Source of the DNA: Candidatus Poribacteria bacterium
GTDB lineage: Bacteria > Poribacteria > WGA-4E > WGA-3G
NCBI GenBank assembly: GCA_003635185.1
Contig: PYJA01000069.1
Span: 1,027-65,026, forward strand
DNA length: 64,000 nt
Direction: 5' to 3'
Below the pieces are notes generated by a model, which was given only the letters and a program-made list of their open reading frames with translations, ran no database searches and had not been told where the DNA came from. This document shows positions 21,571-64,000 of the stretch, piece by piece (within the stretch, counting starts at the first letter, position 1; every line of letters starts with the position of its first letter). The translations under genes and the position numbers were made by a program.

Positions 21571-23139
21571 CTAATTTTCATTTTTTTCTACTGCTTCCAC
21601 AGAAATTTTTGCATAAAAAGCATTGACGTTTCCTTTACCACTGAACCAAGTGCCGGTAGCACCCAGCTTAAAGATTTTACCTTCGTTAAAAGGATATTGT
21701 ATTTTTCCTATCTGTCCAGATGGAATATCCCATACAGAGGCCCGTGCTTCGGTTGGAATTCCTCTTGTAGGCAATTCGGTATCGCCATCAAACAGATCAA
21801 ACGATCCACCTGATTTGGCGCTACCCATCCGAATATCAATCATAAGCACACCACCATCTTTAAACGCTATGGTATCAATCGTAATAACGTTATAGTCTTG
21901 CTCGCCGTATCCTGGCGCGCGAAGTATGTGTAGGACCTCTTGCTCAAAATGTTCTTTATTGAGGGTTATATTTGCACCAGTTAATAGAGGTTCTGATATG
22001 TTCTCACCGAATCCAGGGAATTTCGCATCTAAGGAATCCATGAGAAACATAAGGTAACCATCCTCTTCCGAAATGCCCTTTTGATAGCAGTCGTCAAAGA
22101 AATCATTAAGAGGAAGTTTTCCCATCACATCAAATTCAGGAGAAATCACTAAACAATCCACCGGTGAACCTTCTGTCCATCCTTCCATGATGGCTTGTGC
22201 CAAAGGATATGTTGTGTTTAATGTTTTTCCTTCTCGCTCGCGTCTTTTTGCTATTGGCTCTCGTAAACTGGGAGTACGTCCTAATTCGGCATTGGTTACC
22301 CAAGTATTGATAAAGTTTTCATTTAGGAATTCAATGATTTGGTTATCAGAGAGGACAACTGCCCTCAATTCTTTGCCGCTCCCTCAGCAAGCCTCGTCGA
22401 CTAATGGACCATCTATTGAGACTACATGAATGAGCTTAACCTCTTGTTCTGCTATCTCTACTGCTTGATCTGGTGGCACCCAGTTAATTTTTTCCGACTT
22501 GTAGAAACACAGTATTAGTGCACGTTCCGCCTCTTCTTGGGTAATTGACATGGCGAATTCGAGATCATCAGGTTGTGTGCCTGCACAGAGTTCTATTTGA
22601 GGACAGAAACCGATGTCTGTACAGCCTATCGTATCCCAACCAACATCGAAATTCAGTGTCGTTTCAGGCACGTGCATCTGAAAGCGGACGATTTTATCTT
22701 TGGTTTGGTCGATGACGAGATGACCAGCAAACTGGGACGGTGTGAACCAACCCCCCTTTAAAGCAAATTCTGCATGAATGCGAAACACAATGTCTGCAAA
22801 TTCATCGTTGTAGGCGCGTAGACATGCCCACAGACCTTGTGAGTCTTCCGCATCCATTTCCAGGCGTGGATCGGGATGGAGTTGCTGTAGCAACGTCAGC
22901 GCGCTTTCTTCTTGAATCTGCCAACATTCACCCACCGCAACCGCTTCTGATGGCAGAAAAGATTGAAAAACCGAAGCAGGATATTGCTTTTCCGGTTCAA
23001 CGACACGCAGATTTGCCAATTCGTCCCACTCCACGTGGAAATTGTATTGTGTGTATTCAATCGGAGCAATGAAGCCTTTGACGCTGACTTCCGCGTTCCT
23101 ATCAAGATTAAGTGTGATTTGGTTTTGTAAAGTTTCCAT
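21571..23139 (-). CDS. candidate selenoprotein, copy 1 (522 codons if the TGA at 22384-22386 is decoded as Sec); thioredoxin-fold-like centre with a C-U-G motif
   Basis: ORFs 22384..23139 and 21571..22368 share one frame and are separated only by a TGA. Conservation with copy 2 runs across the TGA. Confidence 0.6.
22351..22366 (-). promoter_or_regulatory. small hairpin 17 nt downstream of the in-frame UGA (candidate bacterial SECIS apical stem-loop), copy 1
   Basis: The mRNA reads UGA-N17-GAGGGC-AGUU-GUCCUC. That is a 6-bp stem and a 4-nt loop containing G and U. Confidence 0.4.
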
Positions 23140-23140
23140 T

Positions 23141-24700
23141 TCAGTTTTCCTCTACAGAAATTTTTGCCTTAAAAGCATTGGTGCTGCCCTTCTCACTTCT
23201 ACCGTAACACCCGGTAGCACCCAACTTAAAAAACTGACCTCGGTCAAAACGGTGCGTGAGTTGCCCTGTCTCATCAGGTTCCAACCACTTCATCGCAAGT
23301 ACCATGTATTTAGTCACTCTTTCTGTTGTAGGGAGGTCGTCGTCACCATCAACTAAATAGAAGTGCCCTTCCGCATCGGCTCTCCCGGTTTCAATATCAA
23401 TAGTTAGCGTGCCGCCCTTTTCAAACGCCCTTGCATCAATTACAACGACTGTATAATCCTTATAACCAACTATTGGTGTCCGAAAAACATCAAAGACATC
23501 CTGTGAAGGTTCTTCACTGTTCAGAGTGATGTTCCCCAATCCGGGCTGCTTCCCCTCCAAACACTCCTTGAGGAACATAAGGTAACTCTCCTCGTCTCGG
23601 CGTTTTTTCTCCCAATTGTCGTTGAAGAATTCATTGACGAGTTGTCTGCCCATCAATTCAAAATCAGCTGATATGACGAAACAGTCTACGGGTGAACCTT
23701 TCTTTGATCCGGTTTTCCACCCCTTTATAATGGCTTGTGCCAACGGATGGCTTGTGTCGAATATCTTACCTTCGCGCTCGCATCTTTTGGCAATCGGATC
23801 TCGCAAACTCTGAGTACGTCCTAATTCAGCATCTGCCACCCAAGTGTTGATGAAATTTTCGTTCAGGAATTCAATGTTTTGGTCGTCAGAGAGAGCACCT
23901 GCCCTCAGGCTTTTGCCACTCCCTCAGCACGACTCATCCGCAAGTGGTCCACCTGATGAAATGGCGTGAATCGGTTTCTGTAGGACAGGTGCCAATTCCA
24001 ACGCTTTCTCCAGCGGGACCCAGTTAATTTGCGCTGACTTGTAAAAACATAACATTAATGTGTGCAATGCTTCCTCTTGTGTGATTGCTACTGTGAATTT
24101 AGCATCTTGCAAAACGTCTTGTTCACCTGCACAGAGTTCCATTTGCGGACAAAAACCGATGTCCGCTCCGCAGAGTCCATCTCTAATTGTCCAACGTGCA
24201 TCAAAGTTCAATGTGGCATCCGGAACGTGCATCTTGAAGGAGGCAACTTTCTTTTCTAATCGGTCAATAACCAGATGTCCAGCAAACTGCGATGGCGCAA
24301 ACCACCCTTTTTCTAAAACGAATTCCGCGTGAATACGGAACAGAATCTCAGCAAACGCACTGTTGTAGGCGCGTAGACATGCCCACAAACCGTAAGAATC
24401 CGCCCCACCAATTTTCAACTCCAATTGTGGGTTTGGACTGAGTTGTCGCAGCAGTGTTAATGCGCCTTCTTCTTGAATTTGCCAACATTCACCCACTGAA
24501 ACCGACTTCGATGGCAGGAATGCTTGAAAAATGGAGGTAGGATATTGCTTCTCTGGTTCAGCAGCCTTTAGATTTGCCAATTCGTCCCAATCCACGTGGT
24601 AGTTGCGTTGGGTATATTCAATCGGGGCAATGAAACCTCTGACTAAAACCTCTGCATCACCGTCAAGATTAAGCGTGATTTTGTCTGATAAAGTACTCAT
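23141..24700 (-). CDS. candidate selenoprotein, copy 2 (519 codons if the TGA at 23924-23926 is decoded as Sec)
   Basis: ORFs 23924..24700 and 23141..23839 are in one frame. The 28 codons after the TGA contain no stop and no ATG/GTG/TTG, yet they encode the conserved LSDDQNIEFLNENFINTW block. Confidence 0.6.
23891..23906 (-). promoter_or_regulatory. small hairpin 17 nt downstream of the in-frame UGA (candidate SECIS apical stem-loop), copy 2
   Basis: The mRNA reads UGA-N17-GAGGGC-AGGU-GCUCUC. Spacing is the same as in copy 1. The two differing 3'-arm positions swap G-C and G-U pairs, so pairing is preserved. Confidence 0.4.
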
Positions 24701-24788
24701 TTTACTTCTCCAGTAAAGAAATTTTTATCTACTTATACACATTTTCGGATGCAGTTTTGCGGAATTATTGTGGAGAAGTAAAATGAGT
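24695..24788 (-). promoter_or_regulatory. 18-bp perfect inverted repeat able to sequester the SD and AUG of selenoprotein copy 2
   Basis: 24771-24788 (tggagaagtaaaatgagt) is the exact reverse complement of 24695-24712. The latter contains GGAGAAG and the start codon of the 24700 gene. Confidence 0.45.
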
Positions 24789-25308
24789 TCTAAAGATAGA
24801 TGGTTGTTCAGATAAGGTCCGAGGGAACTCCGATTCCCGATTACCGTCGCGATTCGAAGATCGCTCATACCTTGGATTAGATATAACGAGGTTTTGTCGT
24901 AGCACAAAAAGCAGTGGTACACCTGCCTCGTGCGCGCAGAAAAATTACCGAATTAATAACTTAAACTTCATACAGTTTGCGCTACAGACAAAGCCTATCA
25001 ATCATGTTTTCCTTGACAAAAAAAGTATATCACATAAAATAGGAGTAGATTTTCGCAATTATCTTGGACCCACACACTTTAAAATATCAAAGGACGAATA
25101 TGTCAATAACCCTGTGCTTTAGCATCGGGGCTTGTGCGAACCACCTGCCAAGCGGTCAATGCACGAGTTAAACGGTTGACTACAGTAAAACATCGCATTA
25201 TCTTAACGTGGCCGTTGACACAATGTATTGGATGCTCCCCAAGTCTGATACCTCTTGGATAGTGTGATCTGGATGGGGCAATATAAACTCTTCGGAGGAT
25301 TACTAACC

Positions 25309-26343
25309 ATGTTAGTTCCAGTAGTAGCTAAGAATCAAAATCCACTTATGCCCACTAAGCCTTCGCGGGCAAGAAAGTGGATTAGAGATAAGAAGGCAAC
25401 CCCGTTTTGGAAGAACGGCATCTTTTGTGTTAGGCTTAATATTGAACCTTCAGACAGATATTTTCAAGAGATCGCAGTAGGCGTGGATCCTGGAAGTAAG
25501 AAAGAGGACTTTACAGTCAAGTCTAAAGCACATACCTATCTGAATGTGCAAGCCGATGCTCACAAAGTTGTTGGCAAGAAGATTGCCAAAAGACGCGAAC
25601 TCCGCAGAAGCAGACGATCTCGGAAGTGTCCGAATCGAAAGAATAGGACAAACCGATTAGCCAACAAAGCACGTGTCCCTGCTGGCACGCGTGTGAGGTG
25701 GGACTGGAAGCTAAGGATAGTGGATTGGCTGTCTAAATTGTATCCTGTTACGAAAATCTGTGTGGAGGACATCAAAGCACGGACAAAACCTGATAAGGAT
25801 AGATGGAATCGGTCTTTTAGTCCGTTGGAAGTAGGGAAACGCTGGTTTGTTTCGGAACTGATAACACGGTTTGGTGTGGGCAACGTATTTATGTATAAAG
25901 GTTTATGGACTTCTGCACGTAGGCAGGCATTAGGCTTAGAAAAGTTATCTGATAAGTTGTCTGACGATTTCTCTGCACATTGTGTAGATAGTTGGGTGAT
26001 GGCACATTCAGTTGTCAACGGAGATAGCAAAAAGGCGATGTCCATGAAACCTGATAATACGCAAGTCTTTTGCATAGCACCTATACCGATACGGAGACGC
26101 GAACTACACCGACAAAATCCACAACGCGGTGGTAAAAGACCCAGATACGGTGGCACAATGTGTTTAGGCATTGTCAAGAATACACTTGTCAAACACGTCA
26201 AACACGGATTGCTGCGGGTAACAGGATACGACACAAGAGGCGGACTCAATCTCAGTGAAATCACAAGCAGTAAGCGTATCGGAAGAGGTGCGAAGCCACA
26301 GAGTTTTCGCATACTCACAAAACTAAACTTTCAATACAAATAG
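25309..26343 (+). CDS. isrB: IsrB-like OMEGA-family RuvC nuclease (IscB relative lacking the HNH insert)
   Basis: N-terminal PLMP motif (VAKNQNPLMPTKPSRARKW), RuvC-I GVDPGSK, and an Arg-rich bridge helix KRRELRRSRRSRKCPNRKNRTNR. RuvC-II is ICVEDIK and RuvC-III is AHCVDSW, with only about 70 aa and no HNH/Cys motifs between them. The ATG at 25309 follows GGAGG. Confidence 0.75.
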   Translation: MLVPVVAKNQNPLMPTKPSRARKWIRDKKATPFWKNGIFCVRLNIEPSDRYFQEIAVGVDPGSKKEDFTVKSKAHTYLNVQADAHKVVGKKIAKRRELRRSRRSRKCPNRKNRTNRLANKARVPAGTRVRWDWKLRIVDWLSKLYPVTKICVEDIKARTKPDKDRWNRSFSPLEVGKRWFVSELITRFGVGNVFMYKGLWTSARRQALGLEKLSDKLSDDFSAHCVDSWVMAHSVVNGDSKKAMSMKPDNTQVFCIAPIPIRRRELHRQNPQRGGKRPRYGGTMCLGIVKNTLVKHVKHGLLRVTGYDTRGGLNLSEITSSKRIGRGAKPQSFRILTKLNFQYK

Positions 26344-26398
26344 GAGCGAGCATTCCCCACCGAGCTAAAGCTGCGGTGTCCCCTGCTCGAATATTTAG

Positions 26399-27466
26399 AT
26401 GGAAAAAACGCATCTATTCCACGCGCCTCACCTTCACGCGATTGCCCGTACGATTTTTGTTGCTGCTGGCGCATCTCAACATATTGCTGACGATGTTGCC
26501 GAGATTCTTGTTAAAGCTCATTTAGCCGGTCATGATTCACACGGTGTGCTGAGAATCCCAGCATACATCAGAGGCATTGATGCTGGAAACATAAAACCTT
26601 CTGCAGAACCTGAAGTCGTTGCCGAAACTGACAACACGTTACGCGTTGATGGAAAGGGGGCTTTTGGACACTATGTTTCACGATGGTCAATCCGGAAAGC
26701 CATAGCAAAAGCAAAGACATCTGCTGCTTGTTGTGTGAGTATTTTCAACACGGGACATATTGGTCGGTTAGGTGAGTATGCGGAAGAAGCAGCGGGAGCT
26801 GAGTGTATCGGGCTAATTTCTGTCGGAATGGGTGGCAAAGGTGCAGGTCCAACGGTGCCTTATGGCGGTTCACAAGGCACTTTCAGCACGAATCCGATCG
26901 CTATCGGTGTCCCAACAGGCGATGATGCGCCATTTATTGTTGACTACGCAACAAGTGTGATTGCCGAAGGTAAAATTCAGGTTGCGCGTAGCAAAGGGAC
27001 AGAATTGCCCGAAGGATGTATTTTAGATAAACACGGTGCACCGAGTATTAAACCTGCTGATTTTTACGATGGCGGCGCGCTTCTTGCATTTGGCAAACAT
27101 AAGGGATATGCGCTTGCAATGTTTACATGTTTGCTCGGCGGATTGGCGGGAACGTTTGATGCTGAGACAGGGCGAATGGGCGGCATCTTCATGCAAGTCA
27201 TTGATGTTAATGCTTTTACGCCAATAGCAGAATACCAGAAAGGGGTTCGTGCGTTTTTAGATGTTATTAAAGCTACACCACCTGCACACGGATTTGATGA
27301 AGTCTTAGTTCCAGGTGATTTTGAATCCCGCTACCGTGCTGAACGCCTACAGAGTGGGATTGAGATACCGTATACCATCAAAAATCAACTTCAGGAATGT
27401 GCAGATAAATTTGGGATTTCAATCGGTGCCGAGATAATCGGAGCAGAAGATAAAGCACGGTATTAA
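26399..27466 (+). CDS. Ldh_2-family (malate/L-lactate/sulfolactate-type) oxidoreductase
   Basis: Family blocks HDSHGV, GHIGRLGEY, FSTNPIA, DYATS and FGKHKGYAL. Confidence 0.85.
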   Translation: MEKTHLFHAPHLHAIARTIFVAAGASQHIADDVAEILVKAHLAGHDSHGVLRIPAYIRGIDAGNIKPSAEPEVVAETDNTLRVDGKGAFGHYVSRWSIRKAIAKAKTSAACCVSIFNTGHIGRLGEYAEEAAGAECIGLISVGMGGKGAGPTVPYGGSQGTFSTNPIAIGVPTGDDAPFIVDYATSVIAEGKIQVARSKGTELPEGCILDKHGAPSIKPADFYDGGALLAFGKHKGYALAMFTCLLGGLAGTFDAETGRMGGIFMQVIDVNAFTPIAEYQKGVRAFLDVIKATPPAHGFDEVLVPGDFESRYRAERLQSGIEIPYTIKNQLQECADKFGISIGAEIIGAEDKARY

Positions 27467-58372: not shown

Positions 58373-58469
58373 AATTTTCTTTGCACTCCATCAAACATTC
58401 TCGTTCTAACAGCACCTTGTTTTGTATAGTAAAGCATGTAATTATTTGGACATTTGTAGCACAAACTGT

Positions 58470-58630
58470 ATGAAGTTTAAGTTATTAATTCGGTAATTGG
58501 CAAGGTTAGGAAGAAATCAACGGTATGAATGCCATTTAGGCATTCCCCGCCTTGCCAGCAGCAGGTTTACATCTCTGCTGGCAAGGTTTCCTAACCTCGC
58601 CACATTACCCAATTTATTTTTAATCTTCAT
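58470..58630. mobile_element. 161-bp MITE, copy 1
   Basis: Nearly identical to 60301-60462. Terminal inverted repeats are atgaagtttaagttattaattcggtaatt / aattacccaatttattttt..tcttcat. There is an internal hairpin, ccagcag...ctgctgg. Confidence 0.85.
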
Positions 58631-60300: not shown

Positions 60301-60462
60301 ATGAAGTTTAAGTTATTAATTCGGTAATTTGGCGAGGTTAGGAAGAAATCAACGGTATGAATGCCTATTGGCATTCCCCGCCTCGCCAGCAGAGATGTAC
60401 ACTTGCTGCTGGCGAGATTTCCTAATCTCGCTAAATTACCCAATTTATTTTTTTATCTTCAT
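60301..60462. mobile_element. 162-bp MITE, copy 2
   Basis: See copy 1. A terminal fragment also occurs inverted at about 24944-24970. Confidence 0.85.
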
Positions 60463-63699: not shown

Positions 63700-63772
63700 G
63701 GGGGTGTAGCTCAGATGGGAGAGCATCTGGTTTGCAACCAGAAGGTCAGCGGTTCAACTCCGCTCATCTCCA
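63700..63772 (+). tRNA. tRNA-Ala (anticodon UGC)
   Basis: Hand-folded cloverleaf with the G3:U70 identity pair, anticodon loop UUUGCAA and T-loop UUCAACU. CCA is not encoded. Confidence 0.9.
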
Positions 63773-63867: not shown

Positions 63868-64000
63868 TATCAAGCTACTAAGGGCTTACGGTGGATGCCT
63901 TGGTGCCAGGAGACGATGAAGGGCGTGACAGGCTGCGATAAGCTTCGGGGAGTTGCATAGTAAACTGTGATCCGGAGATTCCCGAATCGGGCAACCGAGC
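63868..64000 (+). rRNA. rrl: 23S rRNA, 5' end (continues beyond the window)
   Basis: AAGCTACTAAGGGCTTACGGTGGATGCCTTGG...GATGAAGGGCGTG...GCGATAAGC matches the universally conserved 5' domain of bacterial 23S. The exact 5' end is approximate. Confidence 0.9.

Follow-up and report, generated by a model that had tools for sequence, protein, structure and literature searches.

The 64,000-nucleotide stretch of Candidatus Poribacteria DNA analysed here (the window: contig PYJA01000069.1 of assembly GCA_003635185.1, positions 1,027 to 65,026 of the forward strand) carries an isrB gene directly preceded by a structured RNA. Both lie within a segment, positions 25102–26398, that very probably is a complete non-autonomous transposon of the ISC1 type (IS200/IS605 superfamily) containing only an omega RNA scaffold and isrB; this degree of confidence applies to our best explanation as a whole, including the mechanism described below. 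The element is of a kind already known, the ISC1/IsrB OMEGA class, with a target-adjacent motif (TAM) of the NTGA or ATGG type. Its site lies exactly between the Shine–Dalgarno sequence plus spacer of a gene for an Ldh_2-family dehydrogenase and that gene's start codon.

We sought empty sites among metagenome orthologues of the downstream Ldh_2 gene and found two orthologues without the element, L081 (81% protein identity) and L092 (86%). With a slash marking each junction, the empty sites read ...CAAAGGACTGAATAT/ATGGAAATAACGC in L081 and ...CAAAGGATAGCATAC/ATGGAAAAAACAC in L092, and the window reads ...CAAAGGACGAATAT/25102–26398/ATGGAAAAAACGC. Removal of 25102–26398 makes the window collinear with both orthologues, and these two empty sites therefore define an element of 1,297 bp. 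The empty sites have the form ...GAATAT/ATGGAAA, with the right junction between 26398 and 26399, and insertion took place directly 5' of ATGG without target duplication. No inverted repeat joins the two ends of the element. The possibility that the conserved terminal ...GATG belongs to the element, which would then have donated a start codon to the downstream gene, was rejected because this ATG is also present at the empty sites and is thus host DNA. The ATG at 26399 is the native start of the Ldh_2 gene, since the Pfam domain spans residues 9–331 of the open reading frame (ORF).

A scan of one genome per species yielded a family of 80 loci (L001–L080), all in metagenome-assembled genomes of Candidatus Poribacteria and with 59–76% protein identity, whose 3' ends were placed by local alignment to the family consensus, with junctions about 1,050 nt past the beginning of each match. 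Approximately 55 nt past the isrB stop are conserved in register in ∼70 loci, and homology ends just before ATG. This block consists of an outer stem, an inner hairpin with a CTAAAG loop like that of the first omega RNA hairpin, and a short A/T-rich tail; in the window, the outer stem is formed by 26347–26352 and 26384–26389 and the inner hairpin, with a TAAA loop, by 26358–26378. The bases that follow are ATGA in most loci; the window and its closest clade have ATGG instead. Across 71 loci, the T of this motif is present in 71 and the G in 65, and the fourth position is A in 59 or G in 11. The ends enclose only the RNA and isrB, and the element is therefore non-autonomous. A preliminary description of this DNA, made from the sequence alone, had noted the lack of an adjacent transposase gene; consistent with that observation, Pfam searches found no Y1 transposase domain in the 20 window ORFs scanned, which comprised the neighbouring genes and small ORFs.

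The isrB gene runs on the + strand from an ATG at 25309 (∼25310 in the preliminary description) to a stop codon at 26341–26343 and encodes 344 residues. All of the motifs reported earlier are present: PLMP at residues 12–15, GVDPGSK containing D60, an Arg-rich stretch at ∼94–116, CVEDIK containing E153, and HCVDSW containing H224 and D227. The sole Pfam domain is RRXRR (PF14239; residues 3–157, E 9.5e-31), and the top match among PDB sequences is 8dmb, the IsrB of Desulfovirgula thermocuniculi (DtIsrB; residues 3–301, E 2.6e-29). In this alignment VDPG is paired with VDPG, VED with TED and HCVD with HAND, residues 3–59 align with the PLMP domain of DtIsrB, and the two sequences align continuously. 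The Pfam scan detected no HNH domain in the protein, where only ∼70 residues separate E153 from H224. The NCBIfam IscB equivalog matches through the N-terminal half of its model only, with 84 bits where the cutoff is 175, which fits a protein that has no HNH insert. Across 41 aligned family members, residues D60, E153 and D227 never vary and H224 hardly does, and all four are intact in the window copy. A Foldseek search with an AlphaFold model built on this 41-member alignment, which we use as supporting evidence only because its confidence is low to modest (pLDDT 62), returned 8dmb_P as the top match (E 6.4e-15, TM-score 0.50–0.52), followed by IscB structures. Because Pfam, NCBIfam, the PDB sequence match, the alignment of catalytic residues and Foldseek agree, we identify the protein from its sequence as IsrB, an HNH-less RuvC enzyme related to IscB and Cas9 and presumed to be a nickase. 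The earlier assignment to IsrB and the reported absence of an HNH insert thus stand, with DtIsrB as the best match in both sequence and fold and no other RRXRR/HNH type in its place. None of the outcomes that the preliminary description had named as refuting was observed.

The reading frame could be extended to a TTG at 25255. The true start is at 25309, since homologues begin with MFVPVV and a GGAGG Shine–Dalgarno sequence (25294–25298) lies 10 nt ahead of this position. The public gene call (P0001, 356 aa) implies a start at ATG 25273, inside the omega RNA and within its GGATGGGG pseudoknot strand.

Upstream of isrB, a BLAST comparison with the 80 loci shows that homology starts abruptly at 25101–25102 in the closest loci. 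In a 75-sequence alignment the scaffold begins in register (GTCAAT/GTAAAG) in all of 74 related loci, and the preceding 17–23 nt are unrelated among them. An nhmmer profile built from 73 other loci, with the window left out, has a single match in 64 kb, at 25102–25299 (E 4.6e-51). We derived a structure using RNAalifold with ribosum scoring on sub-blocks that were then combined, giving 58 pairs in 10 helices. In this structure 92.5% of cells are paired, compared with 35–44% when the partners are slid by 1–3 columns, 38 of the 58 pairs show compensatory changes, and the covariation score is 0.399 vs 0.05–0.08 in controls; the observed pairing and covariation values were matched in 0 of 500 shuffles. 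The covarying structure includes long-range pairs, loop–loop pairs and many strand-specific G–U pairs. It is this covariation, not folding energy, that leads us to regard 25102–25308 as a structured omega RNA directly 5' of isrB. The preliminary description had placed ∼300 nt of non-coding, stem-rich sequence at about 25000–25310. Conserved RNA does precede the ATG and its structure is strongly supported, but it extends only over 25102–25308 plus a guide of ∼20 nt. The stretch 25000–25100 was rejected as a part of the omega RNA because homology starts only at 25102; it is host DNA.

The Rfam model HEARO (RF02033) has a sub-threshold match over its full length, on the + strand and ending at the start of the ORF (25102–25307, model positions 1–211 of 211; 29.2 bits, E 0.0018 in a 3-kb search), and the two RNAs share the motifs GUCAA...UUGAC and GGAUGCU..CC.AGUC. 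A loop–loop pairing of GCCA with UGGC is 97% paired, with one pair changed from G–C to A–U in 24 sequences. A second pairing joins a CCCC loop to a GGGG that lies past the closure of the large stem and ahead of the last hairpin; it is 99% paired and almost invariant, and hence uninformative on covariation. From their positions relative to published IsrB omega RNAs (PMC9581776), GCCA/UGGC and CCCC/GGGG are candidates for the adaptor and nexus pseudoknots, respectively. The first base of the scaffold, with its 5'-GTCA terminus, doubles as the transposon end. Stem-loop 1 (helix 2), in which 7 of 8 pairs show compensatory changes, is similar to the hairpin near the opposite end, and both share the family loop CTAAAG; in the window, the stem-loop 1 loop has TTTA where the family has TAAA. 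The last hairpin (25288–25297) carries the isrB Shine–Dalgarno sequence.

The variable segment abutting the 5' side of the scaffold is target-site flank, as it is for omega RNA guides. Taking the 20-nt guide length from DtIsrB (PMC9581776), the predicted guide of the window element is AAATATCAAAGGACGAATAT, which is identical to the DNA upstream of the ATG at the empty sites in L081 and L092 and has only one match within the 64-kb window. With this guide the omega RNA would be ∼227 nt (25082–25308). The Ldh_2 Shine–Dalgarno sequence, AAGGA, lies in the left flank 7 nt ahead of the junction. The nearest upstream gene (23924–24700) is on the opposite strand, so that the 400-nt spacer is a divergent promoter region. 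Within this spacer, the sigma-70-like sequence TTGACA-16-TAAAAT is probably the native Ldh_2 promoter, now facing the guide, omega RNA and isrB. The TTGACA...TA-AAT arrangement is also found at the empty orthologous site in L092; matches to the promoter consensus around the locus are no more common than in shuffles, and the promoter function of this sequence is a suggestion.

These features are consistent with a mechanism in which transcription would start outside the element, probably at the Ldh_2 promoter, and proceed through the 5' untranslated region (5'-UTR) into the scaffold, isrB and probably Ldh_2. The transcript would be trimmed to leave a guide of ∼20 nt. IsrB bound to this RNA would nick only the element-free allele, AAATATCAAAGGACGAATAT/ATGG, sparing the occupied site because the guide sequence there is followed by GTCA. 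Nicking might then favour repair from an element-bearing copy, so that an element excised by a Y1 TnpA acting in trans would be retained or would home. Guide- and TAM-dependent nicking of the non-target strand by the window IsrB is predicted by analogy: IsrB nicks the non-target strand beside NTGA, and some orthologues have been assayed on ATGG (PMC9581776). The external origin of the transcript has a precedent in the IscB element ISGst5 of Geobacillus stearothermophilus, where the omega RNA is bounded by the transposon end, the guide is encoded outside the transposon and transcription must therefore begin in host DNA (Meers et al. 2023, bioRxiv 10.1101/2023.03.14.532601). In that system the TAM is the transposase's motif, and the nuclease targets the donor joint left after excision; the GstIscB TAM, TTCAT, reads ATGAA on the nuclease-coding strand, which is also the consensus of the Poribacteria family. 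ISGst5 differs in that its IscB has an HNH domain and makes double-strand breaks, whereas the window enzyme is a presumed nickase.

Two further known systems resemble the element. DtIsrB (PDB 8dmb; Hirano et al. 2022, PMC9581776) has the same order of PLMP, RuvC-I, bridge helix, RuvC-II, RuvC-III and TAM-interaction domain, likewise without HNH, and is of similar size (about 350 aa vs 344 aa). It also shares an omega RNA located directly upstream and ending at the ORF start, with a 5' guide (predicted in the window), a TAM of the NTGA/ATGG type and a scaffold whose pseudoknots have candidate counterparts in the window. The two proteins are only about 29–30% identical, however, the scaffold is ∼207 nt in the window vs 262 nt in DtIsrB, and the host is a mesophilic sponge symbiont rather than a thermophile. 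By our mapping, the pseudoknot partners in the window appear to resemble group A of PMC9581776, in which stem-loop 2 pairs with the first inner hairpin and the second inner hairpin pairs with the pre-SL7 linker, whereas DtIsrB belongs to group B. The element ISC1-1_MA of Microcystis aeruginosa (Kapitonov, Makarova and Koonin 2016, PMC4810608) is similar in being ∼1.3 kb and non-autonomous, in encoding only IscB1 (IsrB), and in having a 5'-GTCA terminus, subterminal hairpins, no terminal inverted repeats and no target duplication. Its insertion at N/ATGA was also shown by empty orthologous sites; it differs in coming from another phylum and in that the window target is ATGG instead of ATGA. The window provides an IsrB–omega RNA system that is well delimited and apparently intact, from an uncultivated phylum of sponge symbionts. 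Both ends are placed to the base, and its guide, ATGG TAM and short ∼207-nt scaffold can be predicted, making it a candidate for a compact nickase.

The relatives of this element occur in up to seven copies per complete Poribacteria chromosome, with unrelated flanks. In a protein database we found 2,766 relatives at E <= 1e-5, and the top named ones are annotated as Poribacteria; the G+C content of the window is 42%. The multiple copies, sharp ends and 64 distinct insertion sites indicate that the family is mobile across Poribacteria. Some copies look degraded: L026 is without most of the 5' part of the scaffold, the 3' end is replaced in L045 and L051, and the frame ends early in L062 and L067. 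In many members among L013–L080 (e.g., L057:4029) the isrB frame reads on into the 3' subterminal hairpin, where the TAA of the CTAAAG loop ends it; members of the window clade have an earlier stop, a TAG.

Insertion at a start codon is common in this family. The ATG or GTG at the target opens a long ORF in 37 of 71 loci, where a long ORF has at least 100 codons, or at least 60 if it runs off the end of the locus. In 436 kb of flanking host DNA, by comparison, ORFs of 100 codons or more begin at only 14% of 3,850 ATGA sites (binomial p = 8e-14). When shared sites are collapsed, a long ORF is found at the target of 34 of 64 unique insertions. A Shine–Dalgarno-like motif falls within the 20 nt that precede the left junction in 37 of 72 loci, compared with 13–14 of 72 in two control windows, and it occurs in 26 of 34 loci with a long target ORF vs 10 of 32 others (Fisher p = 4e-4). 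The end of the motif is 4–16 nt from the left junction, mostly within 4–12 nt and most often 6–8 nt, which for most loci would be a normal Shine–Dalgarno-to-ATG spacing with the element removed. About half of the 64 unique insertions of the family thus lie between a Shine–Dalgarno sequence and a start codon, and the window is one clear example.

The simplest reading of this pattern combines an ATGA/ATGG target with purifying selection against intragenic insertions and a need for co-oriented host transcription. We tentatively raise a stronger version, which we consider possible but somewhat doubtful, in which this clade is start-codon-seeking and its copies preferentially settle or survive between the Shine–Dalgarno sequence and ATG of expressed, co-oriented genes. 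The ATGA/ATGG target, which is also the TAM, would overlap the initiation codon, and host-driven transcription of the guide would favour such sites. If so, the host ribosome-binding region becomes the guide, and one transcript from the host promoter would comprise guide, omega RNA, isrB and host gene. The host gene would be uncoupled from its own Shine–Dalgarno sequence, and the element would act as both a promoter trap and a modulator of translation. The location between Shine–Dalgarno sequence and start codon would offer a natural answer to how the external guides of IscB/IsrB elements are transcribed, and it predicts effects on host expression. Start codons are not mentioned as insertion sites in the ISC paper (PMC4810608), where the term 'start codon' occurs 0 times, or in a 2026 OMEGA review. 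Meers et al. use the term once, for the start of the nuclease gene, and report an orientation bias relative to the upstream gene (bioRxiv 10.1101/2023.03.14.532601).

Several observations weigh against an intact, mobile, guide-directed element. The HEARO match falls far under the Rfam gathering score of 83, so that it goes unreported at the gathering threshold, and 0 of 20 related Poribacteria loci pass that score. The HEARO check proposed in the preliminary description was thus borne out in extent and strand but not in score: the window RNA is a HEARO-like relative and, by Rfam's own criterion, no member, and routine Rfam annotation overlooks the RNA component of the whole Poribacteria IsrB clade. 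Single-sequence folding of 210 nt is no more stable than that of shuffles (z = -1.0), although it reproduces most helices; the earlier term 'stem-rich' therefore has covariation behind it but not folding energy. The AlphaFold model of IsrB has low confidence, and we infer the 5' end of the RNA, its processing and the length of the guide. The demonstrations of restorative homing concern TnpB and IscB, enzymes that make double-strand breaks, and not the nickase IsrB. A KYR...HUH regular-expression search over 670 kb of Poribacteria loci found no Y1 transposase; the search is crude and this is a weak negative, and current mobility in the source genome is unproven because no Y1 transposase was found. 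Finally, the CTAAAG loop of the first hairpin, nearly invariant elsewhere in the family, carries two substitutions in the window copy. These are among the 5 of 87 highly conserved RNA columns at which this copy differs from its relatives; for the protein the count is 3 of 170 conserved columns. Both figures lie within the family range, and by sequence the copy looks functional.

The missing transposase also raises the question of whether the copy is a stranded one. In that case it would be a fossil, immobile without TnpA, whose IsrB and omega RNA are neutral passengers or have been recruited by the host as an RNA-guided binder or regulator, or whose insertion alters Ldh_2 expression. The absence of a Y1 transposase nearby and in the sampled Poribacteria DNA fits such a fate, as does the distance to the closest public relative, which at 76% identity gives no evidence of very recent copying of the window copy. 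The insertion must also affect expression of the host gene, since it parts the Ldh_2 start codon from its Shine–Dalgarno sequence. Most iscB/isrB genes in general likewise have no tnpA nearby. The intact catalytic residues, unlike those of nuclease-dead domesticated relatives, argue against recruitment, the copy number, sharp ends and many insertion sites point to ongoing mobility in the phylum, and presence or absence at the Ldh_2 site makes the insertion younger than the split from lineages with 81–86% identical Ldh_2. We consider a stranded or domesticated copy unlikely.

It is far less probable still that the upstream 207 nt are conserved mainly as DNA, as an end recognised by TnpA, or as a translational leader of isrB, and specify no guide RNA. 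The resemblance of the first hairpin to that at the other end is what would be expected of TnpA-binding subterminal hairpins, the isrB Shine–Dalgarno sequence does lie within the last hairpin, and the Rfam score is under threshold. But a few tens of nucleotides suffice for an IS200/IS605 end, whereas the covariation here spans 10 helices and ∼200 nt and involves long-range, loop–loop and G–U pairs. The architecture, which comprises a 5' stem and candidate adaptor and nexus pseudoknots and terminates where the ORF begins, matches that of experimentally solved IsrB omega RNAs, and the roles as DNA end and guide RNA are mutually compatible. The features of the transposon and its insertion site are collected in Table 1.

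Table 1. Positions of the IsrB element and adjoining host features in the window
Feature	Positions	Strand	Content or basis
Sigma-70-like promoter, probable, host DNA	25013-25040	+	TTGACA-16-TAAAAT; 11/12 consensus positions
Predicted guide segment of omega RNA	25082-25101	+	AAATATCAAAGGACGAATAT; host 5'-UTR outside the element, contains Shine–Dalgarno AAGGA
Omega RNA scaffold, HEARO-class, 207 nt	25102-25308	+	Rfam HEARO (sub-threshold), nhmmer family profile, covariation
Subterminal hairpin, stem-loop 1 of the RNA	25110-25130	+	CCCTGTGC-TTTA-GCATCGGGG
isrB gene, 344 aa	25309-26343	+	PLMP, split RuvC (D60, E153, H224, D227), Arg-rich bridge helix, C-terminal TAM-interaction region, no HNH
Other transposon end (conventional IS605 left end, on the isrB strand)	26344-26398	+	Compound hairpin, then AATATTTAG
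Target motif/TAM ATGG, host DNA	26399-26402	+	Empty sites; ATG is the Ldh_2 start codon
Ldh_2-family dehydrogenase gene	26399-27466	+	Pfam Ldh_2, residues 9-331, profile positions 3-332 of 333

The preliminary description had also placed the element among repetitive extragenic palindromic (REP) and miniature inverted-repeat transposable element (MITE) fragments. This is correct on the upstream side, where a 44-nt repeat and a REP-like unit are found, but not downstream, where the element abuts the host start codon. The dispersed repeat of ∼44 nt (24943–24986) is host DNA outside the element, with copies at 58455–58498 (-) and 60301–60330 (-) that are 98–100% identical and weaker matches in the flanks of Poribacteria loci L004, L009 and L024. 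The REP-like unit, GAGCGATCT.CGAATCGCGAC, is present in a single copy upstream of the element, near 24846–24870. In L072:622–998 ten copies of it follow one another in tandem at a 38-nt period, and a palindromic sequence upstream of the empty site (L081:2396–2440) is, by eye, possibly akin to it. The unit looks like a Poribacteria-wide REP family.

Further upstream, a 21-nt inverted repeat (24692–24712/24771–24791; 95% complementary, 58-nt spacer) overlaps the start of the minus-strand gene 23924–24700 and may be a small palindromic, MITE-like element. An Rfam match to MIR812 at 24668–24814 (E 4.7) was dismissed as chance, explained by this local inverted repeat. The gene 23924–24700 (-) has a paralogue at 22384–23139 (-) with 64% identity (E 9e-126), and Pfam finds no domain in either of them or in the gene between them (23141–23839, -). 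At the gathering threshold, Rfam identifies only rRNA and tRNAs in the whole window; among the features near its end are a tRNA-Ala (63700–63772) and then the 5' end of a 23S rRNA gene, which begins at 63868 and is cut by the end of the window.

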